This document shows, in pieces, positions 8,307-55,416 of a DNA stretch of 64,000 nucleotides. The DNA is from Candidatus Aminicenantales bacterium. GTDB lineage: Bacteria; Acidobacteriota; Aminicenantia; Aminicenantales; Saccharicenantaceae. Within the stretch, counting starts at the first letter, position 1. Every line of letters starts with the position of its first letter. A program made the position numbers and the translations under genes. The DNA lies in contig JBEKVN010000001.1 of the NCBI GenBank assembly GCA_049513915.1, forward strand, positions 224,322-288,321, read 5' to 3'. The notes under the pieces are model-generated. The model made no database searches. It was not told the origin of the DNA and worked only from the letters and a program-made list of their open reading frames with translations.

Positions 8307-9155
8307 ATGTGCGACTTTTGCCACCAGCACGGGGAAGGAAAAAAGTGGTACCTGGACGCGCGGAATTACTCCGAAGACATGCTCAGCGACCTCCGGCGGC
8401 GCCGCTTTCTCGAGCGATTTTTCGCCTCCCCGGACCACCTCGCTGAAGGGGAACGGGCGCTCGCCAAACTCGACAAAATCCCCTCGTTTTTCACGCGCGG
8501 CATCCGCAAGAAGATCACCGCACAACAAAAGGTCATGCACTTCGGCCAGGTCGTACCCATCGAAGATATCGAAAAAATCCTGGGCTTCACGAGCTCCGTC
8601 GTCCGTCTTGCCTGCATCTGCCGCCACGTCGCGTTCGGTCCGGAACACCGCTACTGCTACGGGATCAGCCTGGCGCCGCAGGGCGGTGAGCTGATCAAGA
8701 TCCTCCGCGATATCGATCCGTCCTACCTGATCGGGCCCCAGACGGGCGGCCTCGAGTTCCTGCCCAGGGAGGACGCCCTGGCCCTGATGCGGGAGAACGA
8801 GGAGGAAGGGCTCTGCCACACGGTCTGGTCGTTCGTCACGCGCTTCATTGGCGGTATCTGCAACTGTTCGCTCCCGGGCTGCCTGGCCATGAGGGCGAGC
8901 GTGACCCACAAAACGCCCGTCATGTTCCGCTCCGAGTACCTGGCGCGCGTGGATGACGGAAAGTGCAGCGGCTGCGGCGAATGCGTCAAGCTCTGCCCGT
9001 TCGAGGCTTTCCATCCCCACAAGCGCAAGACAAAGGCGGTGGTCGATTGGAAAAAGTGCTATGGCTGCGGGATCTGCCGGAACGCCTGCGCCAGGGGAGC
9101 GATCAGCCTCGTCGCCCGCGCGTCGGTGCCCGAAACCGCCGCGCTCTGGCTGTAG
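8307..9155 (+). CDS. 4Fe-4S dicluster (ferredoxin-like) protein
   Basis: Two C-terminal CxxCxxCxxxCP/CA motifs, extra N-terminal MCDFC and CICR/CNC cysteines; likely start ATG 8307. Confidence 0.85.
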   Translation: MCDFCHQHGEGKKWYLDARNYSEDMLSDLRRRRFLERFFASPDHLAEGERALAKLDKIPSFFTRGIRKKITAQQKVMHFGQVVPIEDIEKILGFTSSVVRLACICRHVAFGPEHRYCYGISLAPQGGELIKILRDIDPSYLIGPQTGGLEFLPREDALALMRENEEEGLCHTVWSFVTRFIGGICNCSLPGCLAMRASVTHKTPVMFRSEYLARVDDGKCSGCGECVKLCPFEAFHPHKRKTKAVVDWKKCYGCGICRNACARGAISLVARASVPETAALWL

Positions 9156-9167
9156 AATAAGGACAGG

Positions 9168-9191
9168 GGGGGACACAGTATTGTGTCCCCC
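9168..9191. repeat. Family B palindrome GGGGGACACA-GTAT-TGTGTCCCCC
   Basis: Perfect 10-bp stem just downstream of the ferredoxin stop. Confidence 0.85.
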
Positions 9192-9262
9192 TATTCTATG
9201 ATTTCGGGCGTTTTGGAATTTTTCCCCCTGTCCGGCGTCTAATACACCCTGGCGGAAATTCC

Positions 9263-10153
9263 ATGAGGCTCATCGACATCATCCGCAAGCACCGGCGCGT
9301 TTTTCTGTTCGCCGTGTCCCTCGTCGTCATCGAAAAACTGGCCTGGATCGTCGAGCCGACCCTCTTTGGCCGTCTCCTCGACAGCCTCATCGCGGTCTTC
9401 GGCTCGAAGGAGGCCGTCTCCTACGCCACCCCCCTTGTCCTGTGGGTTGGGGCGTTCGCCGTCAATTCGGGAGTCGGCGCGGCCCGGCGGTCCATCGACG
9501 AAAAAATCTACCTGAACATGTTCACGAACATCGCGGTCGAAGTGACGGAATCGAGCCAGCAGAAAGGTCTGGACGTCGCCAAGACGGCCTCCCGCGTCGA
9601 ACTCTCCCGGGACTACGTAACCTTCCTCAAGCGGCGCGTTCCGGACTTCATTGAACAGTTCTTCGACCTTGGCGGCACGGCCATCGCCCTGGCCCTCTAC
9701 GACATGCGGATCTCGTTAACCTGCCTCCTCATCGCCCTGCCGCTCCTGGTCATCAACCGGTTCTACTCCAAAAAAGTCTTCGGCCTCCAGAAAGAGATCC
9801 ATGACCTGCGGGAAAGCGTCTTCGAGATCTTCGCCAGGAAGGATATCCGGCACGTCCGGGCCTACTACGATTCGATGGTCGAGCCGCAGAAGAAGATCGC
9901 CAACTGGAGCGCGCTCAATTTCGGCCTGATCCGGCTCTGCCTCCTCGGAATTTTCCTTGTTGTCCTCTATATCGCGATCGACATCGACCAGTTCTCGACG
10001 GGGCAGACCTATTCCGTCGTCGCCTATCTCTGGACGTTTGTCACGAGCACCGAGTATCTGCCGGATCTCATGGAGAGCTACTCCTCCCTAAAAGAGATCC
10101 AGGACCGGGTGCGGTTGGAGTCGCCGTCCGACAACGGCTTTGGCGGGAAGTGA
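9263..10153 (+). CDS. ABC transporter six-transmembrane domain protein (no ATPase domain)
   Basis: ABC-membrane-like TM pattern (VEPTLFGRLLDSL...); no Walker A in this or adjacent ORFs. Confidence 0.75.
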   Translation: MRLIDIIRKHRRVFLFAVSLVVIEKLAWIVEPTLFGRLLDSLIAVFGSKEAVSYATPLVLWVGAFAVNSGVGAARRSIDEKIYLNMFTNIAVEVTESSQQKGLDVAKTASRVELSRDYVTFLKRRVPDFIEQFFDLGGTAIALALYDMRISLTCLLIALPLLVINRFYSKKVFGLQKEIHDLRESVFEIFARKDIRHVRAYYDSMVEPQKKIANWSALNFGLIRLCLLGIFLVVLYIAIDIDQFSTGQTYSVVAYLWTFVTSTEYLPDLMESYSSLKEIQDRVRLESPSDNGFGGK

Positions 10154-10180
10154 TGGGGGATGGCGGGGAGTCCGCGGCTG

Positions 10181-11038
10181 ATGAAGACGACGCGCGAGGA
10201 TGGACGGATTCGCAAGACCGCGGGACGGGTCGCCGCCGCGGCCGTCCTGGCGGCGGTCTTGGCCCTGGCCGCCTGCGGCGCGGGCCCGGCGGCCCGCATC
10301 AGGCCGCCTTCGATGACCGGCCAGCCGTATCTCCGGTTTTACGGCCAAGCCGGCGGGTTCGCCGTTTGGGTCGTCAACGGGGCCTTCGTCCGGGAGAACC
10401 TCGACGAGGAATTCACGAATTTCGGCCAGCACCTGAATTTTCGCTTCATCCCGGCCCAAGAATTCTGGCTCGACGAGGAAAACGCCCCGGGCGAGGAGAG
10501 GTTCTTCATCGACCATCTTCTCGTGGAGAACAGGGTCATGGCCCGCGGGGCCGCCTACGACAAGGCCCTGGACCAGGCGGACGCAGCGGAGAAGTCGGAG
10601 AGAGACAAAAACCCGCGCGCCGTGGAAGCCGGGGGGCTCGTGAAGACCGGCCGGACGGACGATCTGCTGCGCATGGTTCACAAGGAACTGCTCAAGGAAT
10701 TCAGCGCGGACGTCAAGGTATGGGTCGTCGACGGCGAGCTCGTCCGGGACGTTTTCTTCATCGATTTCACGGAAGGCGGGCACGACAAGGTCTACAAGTT
10801 CGTTCCGGCCGGCGAAGTCTGGCTCGACGACGACGTCAATCCGGGGGAGCGCAGATTCATCCTTCTCCATGAGCTCCACGAGCGGGCCCTTATGGCGCGC
10901 GGCTGGCCGTACGGGCGGGCCCATAAGGATTCGAGCCGGGTCGAATTTCAGTGCCGCTGCAACCCGGGCCTGCTGGACGCCGCCCTCCGGGCGGAGGTCA
11001 AGAACAACACGTCATCAGGCTCTCCGGAACGGCGTTAG
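10181..11038 (+). CDS. Hypothetical lipoprotein with internally duplicated domain and putative metal-binding HELHE...AH motif
   Basis: Lipobox LAAC; two repeats of about 75 aa (VWVVxG..VR...F(I/V)PA.E.WLD). Alternative start at 10160. Confidence 0.75.
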   Translation: MKTTREDGRIRKTAGRVAAAAVLAAVLALAACGAGPAARIRPPSMTGQPYLRFYGQAGGFAVWVVNGAFVRENLDEEFTNFGQHLNFRFIPAQEFWLDEENAPGEERFFIDHLLVENRVMARGAAYDKALDQADAAEKSERDKNPRAVEAGGLVKTGRTDDLLRMVHKELLKEFSADVKVWVVDGELVRDVFFIDFTEGGHDKVYKFVPAGEVWLDDDVNPGERRFILLHELHERALMARGWPYGRAHKDSSRVEFQCRCNPGLLDAALRAEVKNNTSSGSPERR

Positions 11039-11044
11039 CTAATC

Positions 11045-11068
11045 GGGGGACAGAGTATAGTGTCCCCC
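11045..11068. repeat. Family B palindrome
   Basis: Reverse complement differs from 3466-3487 by one base; lies between convergent genes. Confidence 0.85.
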
Positions 11069-11075
11069 TAAGTGA

Positions 11076-12347
11076 TTATTTTTTCCGGCGCACCGGCGGC
11101 ACCCAGTTCTCGATGAATCTCCTCCCGCCGCTCTCCCGCTCGTCGACGAGCGCCTGGAAGATGGCCTTCATGTGCTGGTAGGGGAGCGTCCCGATGATCA
11201 TCCGGTTATTGATGATGATGGTTGGCGTCGACCGAATTCCGTGCGAATACTTGTCGGACGTTTTCTCGTATTCGGCGCCGGTGTTGATGATCCTCTCGAT
11301 GAGGTCGCGGATGTTGAGGTCGGCGATGGCCTCCTCCGTGCCGTACTTCTTGGCCAGGGCCCGTCGCCATTCCGGGTTCCGGGCCGACCGGAAATTGGCC
11401 CAGATCTCGTTGTGGATCTCGGGGAACCGGGCCAGGTTCCCGGCCGCGATATAGGCCATCTCGCAGGCGCCGGGGTGGAGGCTGGCCTTTTCGGGGACGA
11501 CGGTGTTGCAGATGCCCTCGAGCGGGAAGAACTGGAAAGCGACATTGATCTTGCCCGCGAACTCTTTGTTCAGCTTTTCGAGCTGCTGGGCGAGGTAGAG
11601 GCAGTCCGGGCAGAGGAAATCGGCGTATTCGACGATTTGGATGGGCGCGTCCTCGAACCGCTCCGTGGACTTTACCGACCAGTAGGGCGAGAGGAAGCTC
11701 GGCGAGGCCACCTTGGGAAGCTCGTAGAACTGCTTGACGATGTTCGCGGCCATCCCCGCCTGGGCGTCTTTCTTCGCGTCGTGATACTGGACGACGCCGT
11801 ACGCGCCGGACGCCGCGATGACGGCGAAAACGGCCAGCAGTTTGACGGACGGCTGGACCCATTGCGAGAAGAGGTTCTTCCTGTCGCGGCCGGTCCCGTA
11901 GATCCAGAACAGGACGAAGCTCAGGATTGAGAACAGGTAAAAGCCCGAACAGAGAAGGCACAGGCTGCCCATGACGAGAAGCGAATAGAGGAGAAGGCCG
12001 ACGACACCCACGACGTTGAGGAGCGCCAGGGCCTTGTTGGTCCGCTCGAACGCCTCGGACGGGATGACCGCGCCGAGCGCCACAAGCGCGCCCAGGAAGA
12101 GGCCGAAGAAGCCGAGCGGGACGCCCATGACCTGGGAGATGGGCGAGAAGGCCGAGCTGTCGCAGTTGAAGAAGGCGCTGATGTCGCAGAAGGAGCCGGT
12201 GAAGATCGTAGCCGGGTAATTGGCCAGGAAAAAGTGGCGGATGGTCAGGGCCGAGGCCGCGATCATGCCCAGTCCCGAGACGAGACTCAGGACGCGGGGC
12301 GCGGTCCAGCCGCCGAGCGTCAGCGTCCGTGGCTTCTGATATTCCAT
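11076..12347 (-). CDS. Vitamin K epoxide reductase (VKOR) - DsbA/thioredoxin fusion
   Basis: VKOR cysteines (FCDIS..FNCD; LCLLC) in the TM domain plus DFLCPDC and STPT in the C-terminal domain; ATG 12347 with RBS GAGGAG. Confidence 0.9.
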   Translation of the reverse strand: MEYQKPRTLTLGGWTAPRVLSLVSGLGMIAASALTIRHFFLANYPATIFTGSFCDISAFFNCDSSAFSPISQVMGVPLGFFGLFLGALVALGAVIPSEAFERTNKALALLNVVGVVGLLLYSLLVMGSLCLLCSGFYLFSILSFVLFWIYGTGRDRKNLFSQWVQPSVKLLAVFAVIAASGAYGVVQYHDAKKDAQAGMAANIVKQFYELPKVASPSFLSPYWSVKSTERFEDAPIQIVEYADFLCPDCLYLAQQLEKLNKEFAGKINVAFQFFPLEGICNTVVPEKASLHPGACEMAYIAAGNLARFPEIHNEIWANFRSARNPEWRRALAKKYGTEEAIADLNIRDLIERIINTGAEYEKTSDKYSHGIRSTPTIIINNRMIIGTLPYQHMKAIFQALVDERESGGRRFIENWVPPVRRKK

Positions 12348-45835: not shown

Positions 45836-47317
45836 ATGGTTACACAAGCGCAGAGCGGCCGGGTCGCGGCTTTGGTCGGAATCGCGGCGCTGGCGTTCAT
45901 TGCCGCGGGCTGTGAGACCCGCCAGGAATCGCTGACGAAAAGCCGGATCCGGAAAGTCGAAAAAGGCCTTCTCCGCGCCATCTACCTCAAGGGCCAGCGA
46001 CCCGAAAAACTGTCTCTCGAGGCCCGCCTGCCGTTCTACAAGGTCCCCGGCGTCGGCTTGGCTGTCATGGACAGGAACGGGCTCGAATGGGCCCGGGGAT
46101 ACGGCGTTCGCGACACGCACTCCCGCGAGCCCGTGACAACCGACACCATCTTCCAGGCTGGCGACCTCAGTCAGCCCGTCGCCGCCGCCGCGGCCCTCGA
46201 GCTCGTCGACAAGGGCGTCCTCGACCTCGGCGGCGATATTGAACCCCTTCTTCGCCGCCTGCTGCCTCCCGGCACCGTGCCTACTCCGCTGAACAAAGTC
46301 ACGATCCGGAAGATTTTGACCCATACCGATGGTCTCGCGCCGCTAGGCTTGCCCGGATATCCGCAGGGCCGAAAGCTTCCGCCTCTGGCGGACGTGCTCG
46401 CCGGCCGGGAATCCCCGGCTCCCGGTCCCGGGGAAACGTCCGGGCTTCCCGCCGTCGACACCAACACATCCGATGCCGGCTTGGCCGTTCTCCAGGCGCT
46501 TCTCGAGGAAACCACGGCCAAGACTTTCCCGGTCCTGGCGAACGAGACGGTTTTCGGACCGTTTGGGATGAAACACAGCACGTTCGACGTCCCGTTGCCG
46601 GAATTCATGAAGCTCAACGCGGCCTCGGGGCACGGTCGGGACGGGCGTCCCATCGAAGGAAAATGGCTTTCCTATCCGGCCGCGGCGGCCCGAGGTCTCT
46701 GGACGACTCCGTCGGACCTCGTCTCGTTCGCGGCCGGAGTCCTCCAGGCGGCGATGGGAAAAGAGGGCCATGTCCTGTCCGCGGGTCTGGCCCGGGCCAT
46801 GCTCACGTCCCAGGCCGGAAACCGGGGGCTCGGCTTCACCATCGACGGGGCCGGGACGGACGTCCGGTTCCACCTTGAAGGCCGGACCCGAGGCTACACC
46901 TGTTCGCTCGTCGTTTATCCATACAAAGGCCAGGGCGCCGTGGTCATGACGAACGGCGACAATGGGTTCCTGATTGCCGATGAGATCCTCCGGGCCGTTT
47001 CGGACGCCTACGAATGGCCGGATTTCAAGCCCCAGGAACGCCCCCTTTTCCGGCTCGACCCGTCGGTCTACCAGGATTACGTCGGCCGCTACCAGGTCAC
47101 CCCGGATTATGCCCTGGACGTGACCTACGAGAATTATTACCTGATCATCCGGCCCACCGGACAGGCGCCGACCAGGTTCTACGTGGAAAACCAGACCTTC
47201 TTTTTCTCCATCGACCCGTACGTCCGGATCCAGTTCCTGAGCGACGACAGAGGCCGGGTGACGGGCCTCATTCTCTGGCAGCAGGATTTTAAACAGGAAG
47301 CGAAGAAAATCGGCTGA
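45836..47317 (+). CDS. Beta-lactamase-fold lipoprotein with degenerate catalytic motifs plus C-terminal DUF3471-like domain
   Basis: Lipobox AAGC; IFQAGDLSQPV replaces the usual FQAASISKPV; TNTSDAG replaces YSGGG. Confidence 0.8.
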   Translation: MVTQAQSGRVAALVGIAALAFIAAGCETRQESLTKSRIRKVEKGLLRAIYLKGQRPEKLSLEARLPFYKVPGVGLAVMDRNGLEWARGYGVRDTHSREPVTTDTIFQAGDLSQPVAAAAALELVDKGVLDLGGDIEPLLRRLLPPGTVPTPLNKVTIRKILTHTDGLAPLGLPGYPQGRKLPPLADVLAGRESPAPGPGETSGLPAVDTNTSDAGLAVLQALLEETTAKTFPVLANETVFGPFGMKHSTFDVPLPEFMKLNAASGHGRDGRPIEGKWLSYPAAAARGLWTTPSDLVSFAAGVLQAAMGKEGHVLSAGLARAMLTSQAGNRGLGFTIDGAGTDVRFHLEGRTRGYTCSLVVYPYKGQGAVVMTNGDNGFLIADEILRAVSDAYEWPDFKPQERPLFRLDPSVYQDYVGRYQVTPDYALDVTYENYYLIIRPTGQAPTRFYVENQTFFFSIDPYVRIQFLSDDRGRVTGLILWQQDFKQEAKKIG

Positions 47318-47470
47318 TTTTCTCCTGGGCCTTGGCCTTGGCCTTGTACAGCGCCCCGTCATCTTTCTCGATGAGCTGCTCCACCGTTTTGGTCGGCGCC
47401 GCCGTCCAGGCGTACGATGCCCAGGTTGATCGTCAGGGAGAGCTGGCCGGTCGCCGTCACGGCGACGGCG
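47318..47470 (-). pseudogene. Frameshifted relic resembling the C-terminus of a GGDEF diguanylate cyclase
   Basis: Minus strand reads QLSLTINLGIVRLDG, then in a shifted frame TKTVEQLIEKDDGALYKAKAKA, resembling the GGDEF tail pattern TxSxG...lxxADxALYxAK. Confidence 0.5.
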
Positions 47471-47480
47471 CCCGGCTCGG

Positions 47481-50051
47481 TCACGCCGTACCGTCCGGGC
47501 CGGCGCTCGGACCTTGCTCCTGGACGAGGGAGTTGCTGACCTCGAGGAAGTGCTCCACGACCTCCGGGTCGAACTGCGTTCCCGAACACCGGATGATCTC
47601 TTTCACCGCGTAACGGTGGGAGGCGGCCTTGCGGTAAGGCCGTTCCGAGGTGATGGAGTCGTAGGTGTCGGCGACGGCCATGATCCGGGCCCCCAGAGGG
47701 ATTTCCCGCCCCTTCAATCCGTCGGGATAGCCCAAGCCGTCGTAGCGCTCGTGATGGGACCGCACGACCCTGGCGATGTCCTTGAGTTCGATGACGGGCT
47801 TTAGGATGCTTTCCCCGCGCGCCGGATGTTCCTTGATGAGGGCGAATTCCTGGTCGGTCAGCTTGCCTGGCTTGTTCAGGATGCTCTCCGGGACGGCGAT
47901 CTTGCCGACGTCGTGGAGGAGAGCGGCCAGTTCGAGGTCGCCGGCTTCCTTTTCACTGAAGCCCATGGTGCCGGCGATCTTCAGCGTGAATTCCGTGACC
48001 CGCGTCGAATGGTGCCGGGTGTACTCGTCTTTAGCGTCAATGGCGGAGGCCAGGGACTTGACCGTGGATAAGAAGAGGGAGCGCTGCTGGTCGACGAGGT
48101 CGGACGTCCGCTGCTTGAGATTCCGGTTGGCCATGGCCAGTTCCGATTCCACCCGGCGGATCCGGAGCAGGGCCCGGATCCTGGCCTTGAGCTCGACCGA
48201 GTCGAAAGGCTTGGAGATGTAATCGTCGGCGCCGGCCTTCATGCCCTCGTCCAGCATTTCCGCGCCCGTCCTGGCGGTGATCAGGATGATGGGAATGTGC
48301 TTCAGGGCCTGGTCAGACTTGACGGCCCGGGAAAACGCGTGCCCGTCCATCCCGGGCATCATGACATCGCAGAGGACGAGATCGGGGCCTTTCTCTTTCA
48401 TGATCGCCAGCCCTTTTTCCGCCGACGTCGCGAGCTCCAGGTCGAATTCGTCGCTGAGGAGCATCCTCATCAGCTTGAGGACCTCGGGATTGTCGTCGAT
48501 GGCCAAAATGAGGGCGTCGTGCGTTTTCGTGTTGGCAGCCCCCGCGTCTTGGATGTCCACATGCTCGAGGTCGACGAGATGGAGACGGCGAGAATCCGTG
48601 ACGATGTCCTGGACGCGCGGTTCCTGGGTGTCCGTGGTTCGTCTCCTGAGTCCGACCGAGTGTTCCTCCTGACGACGGTCGAGCGTGTCCGCGGGGAAAT
48701 GCTCCTCGCCTTTCATTAAGTCCACGATGAACCGGGAACCCTTGCCGAGCTCGCTCTCGACCCGGACGCTCCCTTGGTGAAGGCCGACGATCTCTCGGAC
48801 AAGGGAGAGCCCGATCCCGGTGCCTTCGTGGGCGCGGGACATGGATCCATCGACTTGCGAGAACCGGTCGAAAATGGACTCCAACATGTTCGCCGGGATG
48901 CCGATCCCCGTGTCCTCGACGATCAGGGAAACCGCGCGGTCCCGGTCCTCGATATACAGAGTGATTTTGCCGCCGCGCGGCGTGAACTTGAGGGCGTTCG
49001 AAAGGAGATTCAGGACGACTTTTTCGAACTGGTCCGGGTCGATGACGAGTTCGACATCGTGCGGGGGGTGCTGGAAGTAAAGGCGGATCTGCTTCTGGTC
49101 GGCCAGGGGCTTCACCGATCCGAGGAGAGAGTTTGTGAACTCGACGAAGTTGACTGTTTTGATCTTGAGCCGCATCTTCCCTTCCTCGAGCTTCGTCAGG
49201 TCGAGCAGGTTGTTGATCAGCTTGAGGAGCTTGTAGCCGTTGCGCTGCATGGTCTCCAGGGTGTCTTTAATCACGGGCGACAGGCGCCCCATCCGTCCTT
49301 CGAGGACGGCCTTGATCGGCGCCAGTATCAAGGTCAACGGCGTCCGGATCTCATGATTGACGTTTGCGAAAAACTGGGTCTTGAGTTCGTCCAGGCTCTT
49401 GAGCTTGGCGTTGGATTCCTGGAGCTTCGCCGTCGTCTCCTCGAGCTGGATCCGGCCGCGGAGTTCGCGGCGGCGGATGCTGTCCATAATATAGGAGCCA
49501 AAGCCCCCGACGATGATGATCGAGGTCAGGAAGAGAAGGTTGTTCGTTACAAACCGCCAGAATTGGATCTCTGCTCCGTCCACGACGATCGGTCTCTGGC
49601 CATGGAGAATTTTAAAGATACTCGGCACCGTGTACATGAGCCAGACGAGGCAGTAGAGGACGATGGTCTCTCGAAACGCCAACGGGATGAGGACCATCAT
49701 GCCCATGACGATGATGTTCAATCCCTGATAGTAGCTGGTCAGGAAGCCGCCCAGGATCTGAATCATGACCGCGATCCCCGCCGCGTCCACAAGGGCCAAG
49801 GTCAGGGCCAGATTCATGGTCCCTTGCGTGGTTTTGACTCTTCCCAGGAGGACGATGAGGACGCCGACAATGCCAACCACGACCATGCGGATGAGAAGGA
49901 AAGTTTTAAAGTAATGGGGTGTATAAATGGCGTCGAGACCGAGAAAGCTCAGGTAGAGGAAGATGCTCAGGATGGCGGCCAGCCGGGTCCGCCCTTTCAG
50001 GTCATATTCCTTATTCAGCCGTTCTTCGAATGCCATATCGCGGTTAGCCAT
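47481..50051 (-). CDS. Hybrid sensor: 6-TM domain - HisKA - HATPase - REC - HD-GYP phosphodiesterase (856 aa)
   Basis: H-box ANVNHEIRTPL, N/G1/F/G2 boxes, REC with DVMMPGMDG and SKPF, HD-GYP motifs LLHDVGK, HHERYDGLGYP and RPYRK; ATG 50051 overlaps the upstream stop. Confidence 0.92.
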   Translation of the reverse strand: MANRDMAFEERLNKEYDLKGRTRLAAILSIFLYLSFLGLDAIYTPHYFKTFLLIRMVVVGIVGVLIVLLGRVKTTQGTMNLALTLALVDAAGIAVMIQILGGFLTSYYQGLNIIVMGMMVLIPLAFRETIVLYCLVWLMYTVPSIFKILHGQRPIVVDGAEIQFWRFVTNNLLFLTSIIIVGGFGSYIMDSIRRRELRGRIQLEETTAKLQESNAKLKSLDELKTQFFANVNHEIRTPLTLILAPIKAVLEGRMGRLSPVIKDTLETMQRNGYKLLKLINNLLDLTKLEEGKMRLKIKTVNFVEFTNSLLGSVKPLADQKQIRLYFQHPPHDVELVIDPDQFEKVVLNLLSNALKFTPRGGKITLYIEDRDRAVSLIVEDTGIGIPANMLESIFDRFSQVDGSMSRAHEGTGIGLSLVREIVGLHQGSVRVESELGKGSRFIVDLMKGEEHFPADTLDRRQEEHSVGLRRRTTDTQEPRVQDIVTDSRRLHLVDLEHVDIQDAGAANTKTHDALILAIDDNPEVLKLMRMLLSDEFDLELATSAEKGLAIMKEKGPDLVLCDVMMPGMDGHAFSRAVKSDQALKHIPIILITARTGAEMLDEGMKAGADDYISKPFDSVELKARIRALLRIRRVESELAMANRNLKQRTSDLVDQQRSLFLSTVKSLASAIDAKDEYTRHHSTRVTEFTLKIAGTMGFSEKEAGDLELAALLHDVGKIAVPESILNKPGKLTDQEFALIKEHPARGESILKPVIELKDIARVVRSHHERYDGLGYPDGLKGREIPLGARIMAVADTYDSITSERPYRKAASHRYAVKEIIRCSGTQFDPEVVEHFLEVSNSLVQEQGPSAGPDGTA

Positions 50052-53000
50052 GGATGTTCCTCGCTCTGGCAATGACGACATACCCCTGCGGGGGGTCGCC
50101 GTACGACGGAATGACCCTGTCGATCTCCCAGCCCGCCCCCTCCAGCAGGCCTTCGAGTTTCTCCGGGTCGAAGAAGTCGAACGTTCCTGCTTCTTCCAGG
50201 TCCACCAGGGCCTGGGCGTCGTTAAGGAAGGACCGGAGGGACTCGAGCAGGAGGGGTTTAGGCCATTTCGGCGGCAGGGCCTCCTCGGGCATGGTTTCGA
50301 TTTTTTCCAGGAGCCGAGTGAAGGGGCCCGACGCGTCGGTATCCGGGCGCATGCTCGAAAGAACGAGCCGTCCTCCCGGCCTGATGATCCGCCGGACCTC
50401 GGCCAGGGTTTCTCCAGGATTGAAGATATAGGAAAGGACAAGGCTCATGAGGACCTTGTTAAACCAGCCCGCGCGGATCGGCAAATGGATGTTTCCTTCC
50501 AGGAACCCGGGGAGGGCGAGGCGGCGAAGAGTAGGCTTCTTGTTGGTCAACCTGCGGACGTAGCGAGCGGCTTGGTTGAAGTCCAGGATCGTCCGGTATT
50601 CATGGAGATCGAACTGCCGCTTCAACCAGTCGTCCAGTGCCGGGGTGATAGACTCGCCGCGGAGGATCCGGTGGAGCTTGGGGGAATAAGCCCCCTGGAT
50701 CTTGATGGCGCTCTCCAGGGTGAGGTTTTCGATCTTGTCGGCCATCTCCTCGAAGGTTCCGACCTCGCCGCCGAGGAACCTCTCGATGGGCAGGAAGCGG
50801 CTCAATTCGAGGTCCAGACCGAGGAGGTCGAAACGGCCCGGCTCCTGGAGGGCCTCGTAGCGGGCCGCGAGCTTCTGCCGGGCCTGGGTCATAGCATCCG
50901 GAATGAGGTCGGCAATCGTGATTTGGGCGGGCAGCTCGCGGCCGCTCTCCAGGAGATGTTCGACGAAGTTCCCCGTGCCTCCTCCCAGATCGAGCAGGCG
51001 GTCCGAGGATTGCAGTTCGAGGGCGAGGAGTTGGTCCTGCATCAGCTGCTGGTAATCGTCAGACATGGCCATGATGTCGAAACCCAACAAATTGTTTTCA
51101 CCCACCAGATAACGGTGCCAATAGCTCTTTCGGTTTCTGAGATTCCGCGGTGGAAGCCGGTCCTTCTCGGCCCGGCGCATGATCTCCATGCTCTTGCGGC
51201 CCGGCAAATTCGGCTGGATCATGGCCTTGTAGAGGAACCGGTGAATCAACGATGTGATGGTCCCGAACATCTTGAGCGCGTCCTTCGAGGTTCTGGCATT
51301 GTGCCCGATGGGGACGGAAATCACCTCGCGGGCGGCGTTGGCCTTGATGCTCATAACGTCACGGATGAACTCGGCTCTGACCCAGCTGTCGTATTGGCCA
51401 TAGATCCACGTGATCGGGATGTCGATATGGCGCATGTCTTCGCGGGCCTGCTCCAGAGTCGCCACCGAGTTCCGGACCCCGTCGCCGACGTAGGGATCGA
51501 CGTTGACCAAATTGCCCAGGACCGGCATAACGCCGAGCTTGATGCCGAGCTGAAAGTGTTCCAGGAAATCCAGGCCGCAATTGACGCGAACCATCAAATC
51601 GCGGAATTCCGGTGTTCCCATGCAGGCGATCCAATAATGGATGCGGTGCCGGTTGGCTTCCTCACGGAGGACGATCCGGGCGTCCAAAGCCGAAAAAGAA
51701 AACGTCAGGAGGATGACGGAGCTGGGCCGGAGCTTGGGGTTGAGGTCGAGCCAGTCAAGAATGGCGACGATGTCCGCTGCCCCCTGCGTGAAATTCGTGT
51801 TGAGCATCTCGTAGGGCGGTTCCGAAGCCTCCGGGTCCTTGTAGCTTTCGCCCTTTTTACGGATGCCGTCGAAACGGACGACCGCCAGCGGCCTCCCCAG
51901 CCGGCGGAAGTTTTCCGTCAGGGTCAGGGCGAGACCGAAAAGCGTTTCCTTGGTTTTTCCAAACGCCGGGGGGACAATGACGACGGGAACGGATTTCTCA
52001 TCTAAAGGAAGGGAAGAGTTGAGAAGGCCGACGATCTCCTCGCCCTGACGGGTTTCCACCCGGATGACTTCCGGCGTCGCGGCCCGCGCCGAGGGCTTCT
52101 CCGCGGATTCCTCCGTAGGGTAAACGAAGTCGAGCTCAGGCGTCTGGACGGATTGGATGCTCATCCGGCCGATCCCGAACTGGATCCCGTATTTCATGGC
52201 GTCGGGCGCGATCTCCGCGGCCCTCGCGACGTACCGGACCTCGCCGTTTTCCTTCCAGAGGACCTGATCGCCATCCATGATGGAGATGGTTTCGAGGGGT
52301 GTGCCCTTCAGGAGGACATGGGCGCGAGAGTCGGCGACAAAACTGACCCCGCCGGGGCTTATGTCCGTGATGCGGCCGGCGATGTTGCTGCTGAAAGGCG
52401 CGGGAAGAGGGATCTCGATCCGGAGGTTCCCGAACGGGCTGATCCTTTTTTCGGTCCGCTTTTCGGAGTAGAACATGACCCGCGGGTACAAGCAGACGAG
52501 CTTCTGGCCGTCGGGAGTGATCCGGGAAACCATCGTCTCGAAATTGTACGTGGCGTAGCCGATCTGGAATGAGACAAAGATCAGGTCTGAGGTTTTGAAC
52601 TTGACGTTCAGATCTTCACCTTTGAGCACGCACGTTAAGGGCGGCCGGATATCGGTGAACCCGAGGATCTCCGGATTCCGGGACTGAGCGTGGATGACCG
52701 CGACCTCCAATTCGGCTCTCATGGCTTCGCGGATGAGGGATTCGATCTTATAAGTGTCCGAAAACAGAACCATGTCCTCGGTCTTGAGGAAAGGGTATCG
52801 GACTTTGAGCTCCGCGAGGTCATGGACGGTGACGTAGTCAGAAAGAAACTGAAGGAGGGACCGGCGGCCTAGTTCGTCGATGGACGAGAATTCGACGCCG
52901 ACGCCTCCCTGATCGAGGTCCTGCCTGACGATTCGGCCGCTCACCGCGTAACTCCGTCCGTCCGGGAGGGCAATTTTCAGAGGGAGCGACGAGCCCTCGG

Positions 53001-53550
53001 GTAAAAAGGATACGGTCTTGAGGAACATCCCGTTTTCACTGAGGTTGACAACCCGGGCATCCGCCCCGTCTCCGGCCTCTATTTGGATGTCGGCGGAGCC
53101 GTTGATGTTGACCCTCATGGAGGTCCGCTTCTCGCGGGACTTTTGGGCGATAAGGAAACCGACCTTCTGCTTGAGCTCAGACGGATCCCGCGGTCTAGGG
53201 CAGATAAAATCGATACGGCCGTGGCTGGTCAAGTCCCCGGCTGGATCGTCCGTTGGAGAGTCCGTCAGCAGGATCTTGATGATCGCGTCGGATTTCTCAA
53301 ACATCTCGTGGAGAAAACGGAGGAGCTCAGTCCCCTTCATCCGGGGCAAATCCTCCTTGACGACGAGGACGTTGACCTCGGGGAGCGCCTTGATCAGCTT
53401 GATGGCTTCGATACCGCTGGTGGTCGTATAGACGGAGAACTGTTCGCGAAGGGCTCGCTGGAGTCTTTCAAGATAAGACAGGTCGTCTTCGACGAGGAGG
53501 ACAATGGGCTTAGCCCCGGGGGATTGCGTGCCGGCATCTGTCTGAGTCAT
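50044..53550 (-). CDS. Multidomain protein: atypical REC - PilZ - PilZN(YcgR-like) - PilZ - LuxD-like alpha/beta hydrolase - class I SAM methyltransferase
   Basis: PilZ motifs RTSMR..NLSENG and RTEKR..DISPGG; hydrolase motifs PAFGKTK, RFDG, FSFSA, YDSWV, GHNA; methyltransferase motifs LLDLGGGTGNF and RPGGRLVLS. Confidence 0.85.
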   Translation of the reverse strand: MTQTDAGTQSPGAKPIVLLVEDDLSYLERLQRALREQFSVYTTTSGIEAIKLIKALPEVNVLVVKEDLPRMKGTELLRFLHEMFEKSDAIIKILLTDSPTDDPAGDLTSHGRIDFICPRPRDPSELKQKVGFLIAQKSREKRTSMRVNINGSADIQIEAGDGADARVVNLSENGMFLKTVSFLPEGSSLPLKIALPDGRSYAVSGRIVRQDLDQGGVGVEFSSIDELGRRSLLQFLSDYVTVHDLAELKVRYPFLKTEDMVLFSDTYKIESLIREAMRAELEVAVIHAQSRNPEILGFTDIRPPLTCVLKGEDLNVKFKTSDLIFVSFQIGYATYNFETMVSRITPDGQKLVCLYPRVMFYSEKRTEKRISPFGNLRIEIPLPAPFSSNIAGRITDISPGGVSFVADSRAHVLLKGTPLETISIMDGDQVLWKENGEVRYVARAAEIAPDAMKYGIQFGIGRMSIQSVQTPELDFVYPTEESAEKPSARAATPEVIRVETRQGEEIVGLLNSSLPLDEKSVPVVIVPPAFGKTKETLFGLALTLTENFRRLGRPLAVVRFDGIRKKGESYKDPEASEPPYEMLNTNFTQGAADIVAILDWLDLNPKLRPSSVILLTFSFSALDARIVLREEANRHRIHYWIACMGTPEFRDLMVRVNCGLDFLEHFQLGIKLGVMPVLGNLVNVDPYVGDGVRNSVATLEQAREDMRHIDIPITWIYGQYDSWVRAEFIRDVMSIKANAAREVISVPIGHNARTSKDALKMFGTITSLIHRFLYKAMIQPNLPGRKSMEIMRRAEKDRLPPRNLRNRKSYWHRYLVGENNLLGFDIMAMSDDYQQLMQDQLLALELQSSDRLLDLGGGTGNFVEHLLESGRELPAQITIADLIPDAMTQARQKLAARYEALQEPGRFDLLGLDLELSRFLPIERFLGGEVGTFEEMADKIENLTLESAIKIQGAYSPKLHRILRGESITPALDDWLKRQFDLHEYRTILDFNQAARYVRRLTNKKPTLRRLALPGFLEGNIHLPIRAGWFNKVLMSLVLSYIFNPGETLAEVRRIIRPGGRLVLSSMRPDTDASGPFTRLLEKIETMPEEALPPKWPKPLLLESLRSFLNDAQALVDLEEAGTFDFFDPEKLEGLLEGAGWEIDRVIPSYGDPPQGYVVIARARNIHG

Positions 53551-53689
53551 GGACCTTATTTATCCAGGGCGGATTCCGTCGTGTAACTCATTTAGTCGCG
53601 CCTGGCCCGCGGCGTTGAAGAAAAGAACGGGGGGTTAGTAGCCAGTCTCCAACACCAAGTTTTGTGGGATTCCATAAGTCTCCCTACAA

Positions 53690-53718
53690 AATCTAGTATA
53701 CAAATGTAGGCCTGTCAA
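53690..53718 (-). promoter_or_regulatory. Sigma70-type promoter TTGACA-N17-TAGATT for the PilZ-synthase/sensor operon
   Basis: -35 at 53718-53713 overlaps the aldolase stop; -10 at 53695-53690. Confidence 0.65.
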
Positions 53719-54476
53719 GAGTTTCTTGGCTTCAGGCTTCTTACGATCTCGGCGGCCGCGCTCGAAAACAGGCCGATATCCACCCCCGAGCACACCAGAC
53801 TGTAGCCCTCGGCCAGGGCCTTCGCGGAGCCCGCAATATCGCCCGAAAAGATGCCGACCGGCGTCTTTCTCAGGGAACAGGCTGTCCGGACGGCTGCGAG
53901 GGCATTCCTCACGTCTCCATCCTGGATGCAGCCCGGCTTGCCCAGGCTCGCCGAAAGGTCATAAGGCCCGATGAAGACGGCGTCCACCCCCGGAACTGCC
54001 AGGATATCGTCGATGGCCCTGACGGCATCGATGTGCTCCACTTGGATGATAACCGCCGTCGTCCGGTTGGCCGTGTCCACTTGCTCCTGGAAGCGGACGC
54101 CATAAAGGTTGGCCCTGGAGAAACCGACGCCCCGGCCCCCCTCCGGCGGGTACTTGGCCCAGTGGACGGCCCGGGCCGCTTCCCCCGCCGAATTGACGCG
54201 CGGGATGATGACGCCCGCCGCGCCGGAGTCCAGGGCCTTCTTGATCCACATCTCTTCGTTCTCCGGGACGCGGACGACCGGGGCGCAGGGTTCGCGGACC
54301 GCCTGGATCATGCGGACGAGATCCCCCGGACCGATCGGCCCGTGTTCCATATCGAGGAAGAGCCAGTCGAGGCCGGCCGCGCTCGCGATTTCGGCCAGTT
54401 CGGAAGCCGGCAGCGTGAGAATGGTCCCGACGAGCCTATCGCCCCGCAGAAGCCGCTCACGGAAACTTTCGCCCAT
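53715..54476 (-). CDS. HpcH/HpaI aldolase family (2-keto-3-deoxy-sugar acid aldolase-like)
   Basis: DMEHGP, VVRVP, ALDSGA, VIIQVEH and FIGPYDLS motifs. Confidence 0.92.
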   Translation of the reverse strand: MGESFRERLLRGDRLVGTILTLPASELAEIASAAGLDWLFLDMEHGPIGPGDLVRMIQAVREPCAPVVRVPENEEMWIKKALDSGAAGVIIPRVNSAGEAARAVHWAKYPPEGGRGVGFSRANLYGVRFQEQVDTANRTTAVIIQVEHIDAVRAIDDILAVPGVDAVFIGPYDLSASLGKPGCIQDGDVRNALAAVRTACSLRKTPVGIFSGDIAGSAKALAEGYSLVCSGVDIGLFSSAAAEIVRSLKPRNS

Positions 54477-54504
54477 GTTCTTCGCTCCTTCCGCCCGCGC
54501 CCGC

Positions 54505-55416
54505 TTACCGGTTGAAGCTCCGGCCGATGAAGCTCAGGCCGTCGACGATCCCGGTGCGCCAGTACACCCAGGTGTGGGCACCGTCGCGGACCCGGAATTC
54601 GTGCGGAATTTTCCGGTCGTTGAGGAGGATGTGGAGGGCGCAATTGCCCTTGATGAGAAAGTCGTCGTCGCCGCAGTCGATATAATAGCGGACCTTCTTC
54701 AGGGAATCCTCCGGCAGGGTCCTGGCAAGCTCGAGCGGACTGTACATCCGGAAATGCGGCGTGAGACGGTTTTTGCCGGCGAGGCCGGGCCCGAGCACCG
54801 GGCCGACCACCTTGTCCCACGTGTCCTGCTTCATCGACACGATTTCATCATCCGGCCAGACGGCGGCGCTGAAAGCGGCGCAGGCCGCGAAGACATCCGG
54901 GTGGCGCAGCGCGTAGACGAGAGTGCCCCATCCGCCCATGGACAATCCGGCGATCCCGCGGAACTCCCGCTCGGGCCGCGTCCGGTAGGTGGAATCGATG
55001 TGGGGGATGAACTCCTGGATGAACATGTCCTCGAAACGGACCTTGTTCTGATAGTCGTTGACATACCAGGTGACGCCGCCGTCGGGCATGACGATGATCA
55101 TCGGGGGAATCTCCCGGTCCGCGATGGCCCGGTCCGCGGCCATGTTGACCTCGCCGAACTGGACCCAGCCCGACTCGTTGTCCGTGTAACCGTGAAGCAG
55201 GTAGACGACGGGGTAGCGGCGCGTGGAGGTCGCGTAGTCCGCCGGCAGGTATACCGCGTAATGGACATCCCGGCCGAGGATCGCGCTGGTCAGGTGGAGA
55301 CCCTCCAGGACTTGGCCCATGGCCGGCCCCTCCCGGGAATAGAGCGGAAGGCCGGTCGCGATGGCCATGACCAGGACCGTTGCGAAAGCCGCGATCAACG
55401 CTTTGGAGTTCTTCAT
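54505..55416 (-). CDS. Secreted esterase family alpha/beta hydrolase
   Basis: YLLHG, GLSMGG, DCGDDD and DGAHTW motifs; signal peptide. Confidence 0.9.
   Translation of the reverse strand: MKNSKALIAAFATVLVMAIATGLPLYSREGPAMGQVLEGLHLTSAILGRDVHYAVYLPADYATSTRRYPVVYLLHGYTDNESGWVQFGEVNMAADRAIADREIPPMIIVMPDGGVTWYVNDYQNKVRFEDMFIQEFIPHIDSTYRTRPEREFRGIAGLSMGGWGTLVYALRHPDVFAACAAFSAAVWPDDEIVSMKQDTWDKVVGPVLGPGLAGKNRLTPHFRMYSPLELARTLPEDSLKKVRYYIDCGDDDFLIKGNCALHILLNDRKIPHEFRVRDGAHTWVYWRTGIVDGLSFIGRSFNR

Follow-up and report, generated by a model that had tools for sequence, protein, structure and literature searches.

The locus described here lies at positions 47481-53718 of the window, a 64,000-nucleotide (nt) stretch of contig JBEKVN010000001.1 of a Candidatus Aminicenantales bacterium, where two long open reading frames (ORFs) occupy the minus strand. 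Gene 1 is predicted to encode a multidomain enzyme that binds cyclic di-guanosine monophosphate (c-di-GMP), and gene 2 a membrane hybrid histidine kinase that carries its own receiver and an HD-GYP phosphodiesterase domain (Table 1). The two genes form a conserved functional unit. The locus is read, with a probability of roughly 0.6, as a dedicated module of local c-di-GMP signaling, with a PilZ-gated enzyme under the control of the sensor kinase-phosphodiesterase. The observations behind this reading are the domain composition, the residue conservation, the folds, the synteny of the pair, and the remnant of a cyclase gene next to it.

Conservation of the gene pair

Among 101 related genomes, gene 1 is present in 45 and gene 2 (counted at E <= 1e-100) in 44; the genomes are the same, and the genes are directly adjacent on the same strand. 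The single mismatch is a gene-1 copy that lacks its 3' part (only query residues 10-1076 are covered), as would fit the end of a contig. Whole genera are devoid of both genes. A further 80 loci were sampled from contigs of one genome per species. In all 74 of them with room for a second gene (> 490 nt), gene 2 starts between about -5 and +35 nt from the end of the gene-1 match. Overlaps of 4-14 nt between start and stop were seen in 69 of the 74; the most frequent lengths are 8 nt (43 loci) and 14 nt (21), and 4 nt occurs in 3. In the window the two genes share 8 nt, ATGGCTAA, between the start of gene 2 (ATG at 50051) and the stop of gene 1. This overlap and the length of the second protein, 856 amino acids (aa), are as given in a preliminary description of this DNA, which took the pair for a signal synthase and its sensor and proposed to check whether they stay together across genomes. 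They do: the genes are present or absent together and always adjacent, and loss of synteny was not seen. Because co-occurrence and adjacency are perfect, gene 1 and gene 2 are regarded as one functional unit. No other gene is comparably conserved beside the pair in the related loci, and no exporter is conserved there. Of 301 genomes of the phylum that were scanned, only members of the window's own order have the fused enzyme and its two-gene form.

The sensor kinase-phosphodiesterase (gene 2)

A hydropathy scan of the gene-2 protein reveals six hydrophobic segments within residues 24-189, with a longest loop of at most 18 residues and no periplasmic domain, in agreement with the six transmembrane helices first described. 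Residue conservation was counted over 121 homologues. In the membrane domain D40, R55, M96, G110 and N171 are invariant, and Y108 and P143 nearly so. The kinase was said to be complete, the receiver to possess its phosphoacceptor aspartate and the HD-GYP domain to be intact, and all the residues concerned were found. Those of the G1 and G2 boxes are D380/G382 and G410, and those of the HD-GYP domain are H681, HD713-714, HHE766-768, GYP774-776 and D795. The catalytic residues of kinase, receiver and HD-GYP domain are essentially invariant. Sensor and predicted phosphodiesterase thus share one polypeptide, as proposed, since all the domains and catalytic residues are located on gene 2. No Hpt domain was detected in the protein by the Pfam scan.

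The isolated membrane domain (residues 1-215) matched nothing in Pfam and NCBIfam even at E <= 10. Precomputed matches to MASE8 (PF20968) exist for close homologues (P0122, 91% identical in the region) and for wider relatives. With an older PF20968 model, hmmscan gave no match for the query; the wider relatives reached E = 2.4e-4 at best, with 4 of 59 at E <= 1e-3. A faint MASE8-like relationship is suggested by these matches. MASE8 is likewise a six-helix membrane domain at the N-terminus of signaling proteins, and we know of no ligand for it.

A profile of the membrane domain retrieved 4349 clusters at E <= 1e-3 among 1.84 billion representatives. All of 59 sampled relatives contain HisKA and HATPase domains and 56 a receiver, and only 6 contain HD-GYP; one, from a Brocadiaceae metagenome-assembled genome (MAG), contains GGDEF-EAL and another SpoIIE. 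Judging from the family consensus and the loci inspected, many relatives appear to carry a second kinase module. The breadth of the family was considered as an argument against a specific link with gene 1; it is tempered by the retention of the kinase beside homologous enzymes across several phylum labels, and beside a PilZ-PilZ-methyltransferase. Neighborhoods of the family are mixed, however, and two of the members inspected stand alone.

Further members of the family were noted in other settings. Paralogous six-helix proteins with histidine kinase (HK), receiver (REC) and HD-GYP domains, 33-36% identical to gene 2, occur at L033:4876-7437 (G070) and L162:9001-11553. Both are apart from any gene-1 relative, with DUF3147/PALP neighbors in one case and EamA/OmpA neighbors in the other. 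At L164:6983-8755 a 590-aa PilZ-PilZ-methyltransferase is directly upstream of a MASE8 HK-REC-HK gene (9001-11679), and its first PilZ domain is 36% identical to PilZ domain 2 of gene 1, which makes it a further variation on the pairing of enzyme and kinase. Multi-kinase genes of the MASE8 and HisKA_7TM types surround a 744-aa PilZ-aminotransferase fusion (L165:16030-18264), and a GGDEF-EAL gene is close by.

The PilZ-hydrolase-methyltransferase protein (gene 1)

Homologues of gene 1 are 63-83% identical to it (best 120) and uniform in length (~1165-1200 aa), and those with names are from Aminicenantes MAGs. Conservation was counted over 125 homologues. The protein was found to have no signal peptide and no membrane segment. 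Pfam shows two PilZ stretches in the N-terminal half, the second with 21.3 bits, just below the cut-off. The motif pairs of the two domains (RxxxR and [D/N]xSxxG) are intact in the window and invariant or nearly so in the family, which predicts binding of c-di-GMP. A conserved region of ~110 residues (250-360), with no fold assigned, precedes the second PilZ domain.

The PilZ domains are followed by an alpha/beta-hydrolase whose Ser-Asp-His triad is invariant. Residues 480-1168 were modeled with AlphaFold2 at a mean predicted local distance difference test (pLDDT) score of 76. The best Foldseek match of the hydrolase model is LuxD (1tht), with E = 6e-13 and a target-normalized TM-score of 0.79, and the next ones are lipases, feruloyl esterases and the thioesterase DcsB. 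The entry 1tht is also retrieved when PDB sequences are searched with a profile (E = 8e-5), and several gene-1 homologues have a precomputed match to PF02273, the LuxD family. LuxD is the myristoyl-acyl carrier protein (ACP) thioesterase/acyltransferase of Vibrio harveyi and has the same type of triad. The nucleophile context FSFSA of gene 1 resembles the ASLSA of LuxD. Unlike LuxD, to which it is 14% identical, the domain is embedded in a 1168-aa regulatory protein, and no lux genes are nearby.

The C-terminal part is a class I S-adenosylmethionine (SAM)-dependent methyltransferase. The Pfam match extends over residues 834-1068 and is split by an insert of ~110 residues, which is helical, as in substrate-capping lids. 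Motif I (D854, G856, G858, G860) is present in 124 of the homologues, with an alignment gap in the remaining one, and D881 is invariant. A separate model of this domain (pLDDT 74) has the small-molecule methyltransferases MitM, RebM, CurJ, PsoF, TleD, Coq5 and UbiG as neighbors; when the hydrolase-methyltransferase model was searched as a whole, hydrolases dominated the list. The best NCBIfam methyltransferase matches of gene 1 include BioC (E = 1.9e-6, and 5e-11 in L027). From its folds and the operon context of deeper relatives, gene 1 most likely releases (or transfers) and methylates an acyl- or lipid-type compound, for example to a methyl ester. Stand-alone relatives resembling PhcB were sought with a word-indexed search using the methyltransferase profile, which returned only fragments of the gene-1 family.

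The N-terminus carries a receiver-like domain that is absent from the preliminary description. It keeps the acidic pair D22/D23 and T96, has R119 in place of the usual lysine, and has Lys65 at the canonical phospho-Asp position and D67 at +2 from it. Over the homologues, the canonical position is occupied by Asn (101), Asp (12), Ser (9), or Lys, Thr or Gln (1 each). The acidic pair and the threonine are retained in the family and the lysine in most members, and only one member has neither Asp nor Glu at the canonical or the +2 position. With this reservation, the domain is taken for an atypical receiver that is probably not phosphorylated.

Disrupted copies of the pair are found at G004:C14:18960-22495, G076:C31, G091:C87 and G049:C6. 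Gene 1 is split over three frames in one genome of the same genus. Two genomes have a single in-frame TGA codon in gene 1, and one genome has such a codon in gene 2. Decay, errors of assembly or recoding may lie behind these cases.

A third gene and its remnant

In 26 of 61 related loci with room, a gene for a 690-aa protein directly follows gene 2 (with a 4-nt overlap in L050). The product consists of a HisKA_7TM membrane domain, PAS, GAF and GGDEF, with a GGEEF active site and an RxxD inhibitory site, as in a diguanylate cyclase. When positions 47290-47500 (-) of the window are aligned with the 3' end of the intact cyclase gene of a same-genus locus (L037), the mean column identity is 76%, with a 1-nt indel (frameshift) and a 24-nt deletion. 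The remnant peptides LSLTINLGIVRLDG and DGALYKAKAKAQ correspond to LSLTISLGV...ADRAMYQAKAAG of the intact cyclase. Gene 2 is separated by only ~160 nt from a convergent beta-lactamase-family gene (45836-47317, +), which abuts the remnant. Since this short downstream stretch aligns with the cyclase 3' end, the dedicated cyclase is deduced to have been deleted in the window's genome, with the junction at the gene-2 stop.

The feedback loop that was first drawn, from signal through kinase, HD-GYP and c-di-GMP to PilZ and synthase, thus lacks its cyclase here, as the third gene of the relatives is present only as a decayed remnant. The host genome contains no orthologue of the lost cyclase. It encodes 6-7 GGDEF proteins and has ~9 PilZ-encoding loci (10 PilZ matches, two of them in gene 1), from which it is concluded that c-di-GMP signaling operates in the host.

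Type-B operons

Two genomes of the same order contain a diverged gene-1 homologue (29-34% identity) in a longer operon, here called type-B. Its genes encode, in order, a PilZ-rich hydrolase-methyltransferase, an AMP-binding enzyme, a B12-binding radical-SAM enzyme and, last, a six-helix HK-REC-HD-GYP kinase that shares 34-37% identity with gene 2. The type-B enzyme is a single chain of ~1180 aa with three PilZ domains and no receiver. The best NCBIfam match of the AMP-binding enzyme is a long-chain-fatty-acid-CoA ligase subfamily (E = 2e-54). The radical-SAM enzyme is closest to HpnJ, BchE and PhpK, with ladderane-lipid and HpnR families also listed. These adenylating and radical-SAM partners point to small-molecule chemistry, probably on a lipid. 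The synthase proposed in the preliminary description therefore stands in part: the enzyme looks like a small-molecule acyl enzyme by its LuxD-like fold and its type-B operon partners, but the Pfam and NCBIfam scans and the methyltransferase-profile search found no homology to PhcB, CqsA or RpfF.

A metagenome scan with the type-B profile yielded 41 loci, and the same gene order is present in ~25 of those with room, at 35-56% identity and a GC content of 36%-62%. This wider distribution surfaced only with that profile in the metagenomes and not in the scan of 301 genomes. Proteins identical or nearly identical to the AMP-ligases are labeled at NCBI as from Desulfobacula, Spirochaetota and Spirochaetia MAGs, the labels being approximate. 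Together with the spread in GC content, these labels indicate that the type-B operon spans several phyla. Operons at L121-L161 (metagenome) and at L025-L027 were recorded as five-gene operons. The integrity of the PilZ motifs was also considered as a correlate of HD-GYP in the partner kinase; it is not one, and the motifs are intact either way.

The form in the window has a receiver in place of the first PilZ domain and is without the ligase and the radical-SAM enzyme. Elsewhere in the host genome only distant homologues of these are found, with 21-29% identity for the ligase and 35% at best for the radical-SAM enzyme.

Promoter, leader and neighboring genes

The TTGACA-N17-TAGATT promoter reported in the preliminary description is present on the minus strand upstream of gene 1. 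Judged by the consensus alone, the site is not significant, with 2 occurrences against 1.6 expected in shuffled sequence. In 59 of 70 related loci, however, a TTGACA-N16-18-TAnnnT element precedes the gene-1 homologue, usually at 135-215 nt from the start codon. Five genomes aligned at a mean identity of only 60% all have the same -35 box. Because it recurs in this way in relatives, the promoter is considered more than a consensus match.

Within the leader, an inverted repeat conserved in the same five-genome alignment follows right behind the -10 box (53691-53660 (-), TTTTGTAGGGA...TCCCACAAAA) and may be an operator or a leader hairpin. At one arm position G-C is changed to A-T on both sides between L050 and L045. 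A second element, the box CGACTAAA at 53598-53591 (-), is invariant in that alignment. A riboswitch or other known RNA was considered for the leader and rejected, as it has no match in Rfam and the fold stability of the whole leader is ordinary (z = -0.1).

Directly upstream of the promoter, 53715-55416 (-) encodes an HpcH/HpaI aldolase and a putative esterase, and the stop codon of the aldolase gene overlaps the -35 box. Neither gene is conserved with the pair across relatives.

Table 1. Features of the locus, with positions in the window.
Feature	Position	Strand	Basis
Sigma-70-type promoter	53690..53718	-	TTGACA 53718-53713, 17-nt spacer, TAGATT 53695-53690
5' leader of gene 1, ~140 nt	53551..53691	-	Conserved inverted repeat and invariant box
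Gene 1, 1168 aa, predicted c-di-GMP-binding multidomain enzyme	50044..53550	-	ORF and family scans
Atypical receiver, gene 1 residues 17-129	53164..53502	-	Pfam Response_reg 30.9 bits (cut-off 30.2)
PilZ domain 1, gene 1 residues 140-236	52843..53133	-	Pfam PilZ E = 8e-18; R142xxxR146, N169xS171xxG174
PilZ domain 2, gene 1 residues 363-458	52177..52464	-	R365xxxR369, D396xS398xxG401
LuxD-type alpha/beta-hydrolase, gene 1 residues ~500-770	51241..52053	-	Triad S618, D721, H750
Class I SAM-dependent methyltransferase, gene 1 residues ~830-1168	50047..51063	-	D854xGxGxG860, D881; Pfam Methyltransf_23/11/12/25
Gene 2, 856 aa, membrane hybrid histidine kinase with receiver and HD-GYP	47481..50051	-	ORF and Pfam
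Six-helix membrane sensor domain, gene 2 residues 1-190	49482..50051	-	Hydropathy scan
HisKA and HATPase_c, gene 2 residues 224-445	48717..49382	-	HisKA 224-291 (H233); HATPase_c 338-445 (N352, G1, G2)
Canonical receiver, gene 2 residues 515-626	48174..48509	-	Response_reg; D519/D520, D562, T592, K614
HD-GYP phosphodiesterase domain, gene 2 residues 667-831	47559..48053	-	HD_5 E = 1e-43
Decayed 3' end of 7TM-PAS-GAF-GGDEF diguanylate cyclase gene	47334..47473	-	Last ~45 codons

Proposed mechanism and alternatives

In the proposed mechanism, the steps from the input to HD-GYP and the binding of c-di-GMP are inferred from conserved residues and from what is known of the families, and the chemistry from fold and operon context; the direction of regulation is likewise deduced. 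A cue in or at the membrane would be perceived by the six-helix domain of gene 2 and would set the autophosphorylation of H233. The phosphoryl group would then move to the protein's own receiver at D562 and switch the fused HD-GYP phosphodiesterase. Phosphorylation-dependent activity is established for REC-HD-GYP proteins of the RpfG type (bioRxiv 10.1101/2021.11.05.467447). The switch would lower c-di-GMP, probably locally. Gene 1, translationally coupled to gene 2, would read the messenger through its two PilZ domains, which would gate the LuxD-like acyl-thioester hydrolase/acyltransferase and the SAM-dependent small-molecule methyltransferase with its helical cap. As the receiver-like domain of gene 1 lacks the canonical phospho-Asp, it is more likely a docking or regulatory module than a normal target of phosphorylation. 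Ancestrally, and in many relatives still, the cyclase encoded by the third gene would have supplied the c-di-GMP; with this gene deleted, the messenger would have to come from six other GGDEF proteins in the window's genome.

Several observations weigh against a dedicated c-di-GMP module of this kind. The cyclase is missing not only here but in 35 of the 61 relatives. In the low-GC type-B loci HD-GYP is replaced in the kinase by a second kinase module, and the PilZ motifs of the enzyme are intact, so that the link between kinase and enzyme does not always run via hydrolysis of c-di-GMP. As regards the chemistry, the match of the hydrolase to Pfam Acyl_transf_2 (PF02273; residues 530-737) has 17.9 bits, below the gathering threshold of 20.3, and the fold neighbors of the methyltransferase are generic, so that its substrate class is not readable from them. 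The module is known from sequence, and the host is uncultured. Finally, the retention of Asp or Glu at the canonical or +2 position of the gene-1 receiver leaves a small chance that gene 2 phosphorylates gene 1.

That last point is the basis of a different reading, in which gene 1 acts as an ordinary response regulator for gene 2 and phosphorylation of its receiver, at D67 or the canonical site, is the main control instead of c-di-GMP. The acidic pair, threonine and lysine are conserved in most homologues, 124 of 125 keep the acidic residue, and the hybrid kinase has no Hpt domain, so that phosphotransfer to gene 1 would be direct. The canonical acceptor is replaced by Asn, Ser, Lys, Thr or Gln in 113 of the 125, however, by Lys in the window, where the conserved lysine is in turn substituted by R119. 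Type-B enzymes exchange the receiver for a third PilZ domain and the partnership with the kinase persists. This reading is accordingly given very little weight. Somewhat less remote, but still improbable, is a switch of opposed activities, in which the methyltransferase makes and the hydrolase cleaves a methyl ester on the same carboxyl and c-di-GMP, through PilZ, decides which prevails, as in BioC/BioH or in protein carboxyl methylation and demethylation. The two activities are always fused or adjacent, and BioC, a malonyl-ACP O-methyltransferase, is among the best NCBIfam methyltransferase matches; its partner BioH is an alpha/beta-hydrolase methyl-esterase. Control of a methyltransferase by c-di-GMP through a PilZ protein has a precedent in MapZ-CheR (bioRxiv 10.1101/814665). 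The score for BioC is far under the family cut-off (27.9 against 185 bits), though, and both the closest structure and the only sequence-level family match of the hydrolase are to LuxD, not to BioH or a methyl-esterase. The acyl-adenylating and radical-SAM partners of the type-B operons also favor a biosynthetic pathway over a futile switch.

The closest competitor, though an unlikely one, is a closed autoinducer loop. Gene 1 would make a hydrophobic signal of the methyl-ester type that partitions into the membrane, where the six-helix domain of gene 2 detects it, and HD-GYP and c-di-GMP would feed back on the PilZ-gated synthase; this would be a quorum system like Phc or Rpf with c-di-GMP inside the loop. 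The six-helix kinase stays beside the enzyme genes across deep divergence (30-35% identity, several phylum labels) and persists even where its output changes from HD-GYP to a second kinase, which fits a link via the input. The lack of a periplasmic domain in gene 2 and the invariant polar residues inside its membrane helices (D40, R55 and N171, with Y108 nearly so) are consistent with such a signal, and Phc offers the precedent of a methyltransferase that makes methyl 3-hydroxymyristate and is paired with a sensor kinase (PMC8578825, PMC11960443). The same membrane domain and invariant residues are, on the other hand, present in thousands of kinase clusters, some without a gene-1 relative nearby; the conserved residues thus do not define a product-specific pocket. 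No exporter is conserved in the locus, and a search of 5.8 billion proteins with the methyltransferase profile gave no homology to PhcB. In a broader and slightly more doubtful version, the ~1180-aa proteins in general would be synthases of a lipid-derived methylated signal and the adjacent MASE8-like kinases their receptors, in an ancient system of cell-cell communication or of sensing membrane state. If true, c-di-GMP would be inside an autoinduction loop in MAGs labeled Acidobacteriota/Aminicenantes, Desulfobacterota and Spirochaetota, and the Aminicenantes version would be a streamlined two-gene form.

Comparison with known systems

The locus works like the Rpf and Phc systems yet appears to belong to neither. 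As in the Rpf system of Xanthomonas, a membrane hybrid kinase controls a REC-HD-GYP phosphodiesterase (RpfC/RpfG) and is linked to an enzyme of fatty-acyl metabolism (RpfF), and the sensor crosses the membrane several times without a large periplasmic domain. In contrast to Rpf, one polypeptide here unites kinase, receiver and HD-GYP; it has only one receiver and lacks an Hpt domain. In place of the crotonase-family RpfF, the kinase is linked to a LuxD-like hydrolase and methyltransferase gated by PilZ; this enzyme is itself predicted to bind the messenger, and many relatives add a cyclase gene. No match to the crotonase (ECH) or Hpt families was found on either protein in Pfam and NCBIfam.

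In Ralstonia, the methyltransferase PhcB, which makes a fatty-acid methyl ester, is encoded beside the sensing membrane kinase PhcS (PMC8578825, PMC11960443). Phc is the nearest functional analogy to the chemistry proposed for gene 1, but no sequence relationship to PhcB was detected by the methyltransferase-profile search. Phc has no PilZ, HD-GYP or c-di-GMP component, and its output is the transcription factor PhcA. Pfam and NCBIfam gave no match of either gene to the aminotransferase class of CqsA, the pyridoxal phosphate-dependent enzyme of CqsA/CqsS. With no crotonase, no Hpt domain, and no detectable relative of PhcB or CqsA, the locus is assigned to neither Rpf nor, on the searches made, Phc.

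The predicted direct gating of an enzyme by binding of c-di-GMP to PilZ is shared with the cellulose synthase BcsA, Alg44 and MapZ-CheR1. MapZ controls a methyltransferase (bioRxiv 10.1101/814665). The predicted targets here, an acyl hydrolase of the cytoplasm and a small-molecule methyltransferase, differ from the glycosyltransferase and the chemoreceptor methylase of those systems. Each chain carries two PilZ domains (three in type-B), and the cognate phosphodiesterase is in the same operon. The architecture is not described in the literature searched, nor in the passages of an HD-GYP and a PilZ survey that term searches returned. This analysis newly contributes the third-gene cyclase with its remnant, the statistics on the gene-1 receiver, the five-gene operon of several phyla, and the variable output domain of the kinase.

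Implications

Most c-di-GMP effectors known so far act on polysaccharide synthases, flagellar motors, pili or transcription. In the present locus the enzyme that c-di-GMP gates appears to be a cytoplasmic acyl hydrolase/methyltransferase, and such an output is undescribed in the literature and in those parts of the surveys that were searched. The output of the module would be an enzyme and not a transcription factor. The module is unusually self-contained: one chain carries sensor, kinase, receiver and phosphodiesterase, the operon also encodes the predicted receptor-enzyme, and many relatives add the cyclase to it. It would be a compact model for local c-di-GMP signaling, and both proteins could be expressed and assayed without culturing the host. 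Since type-B operons occur in MAGs labeled Desulfobacula and Spirochaetota, the product may be a lipid or signal molecule that is widespread but unrecognized among anaerobic bacteria of sediments and wetlands.

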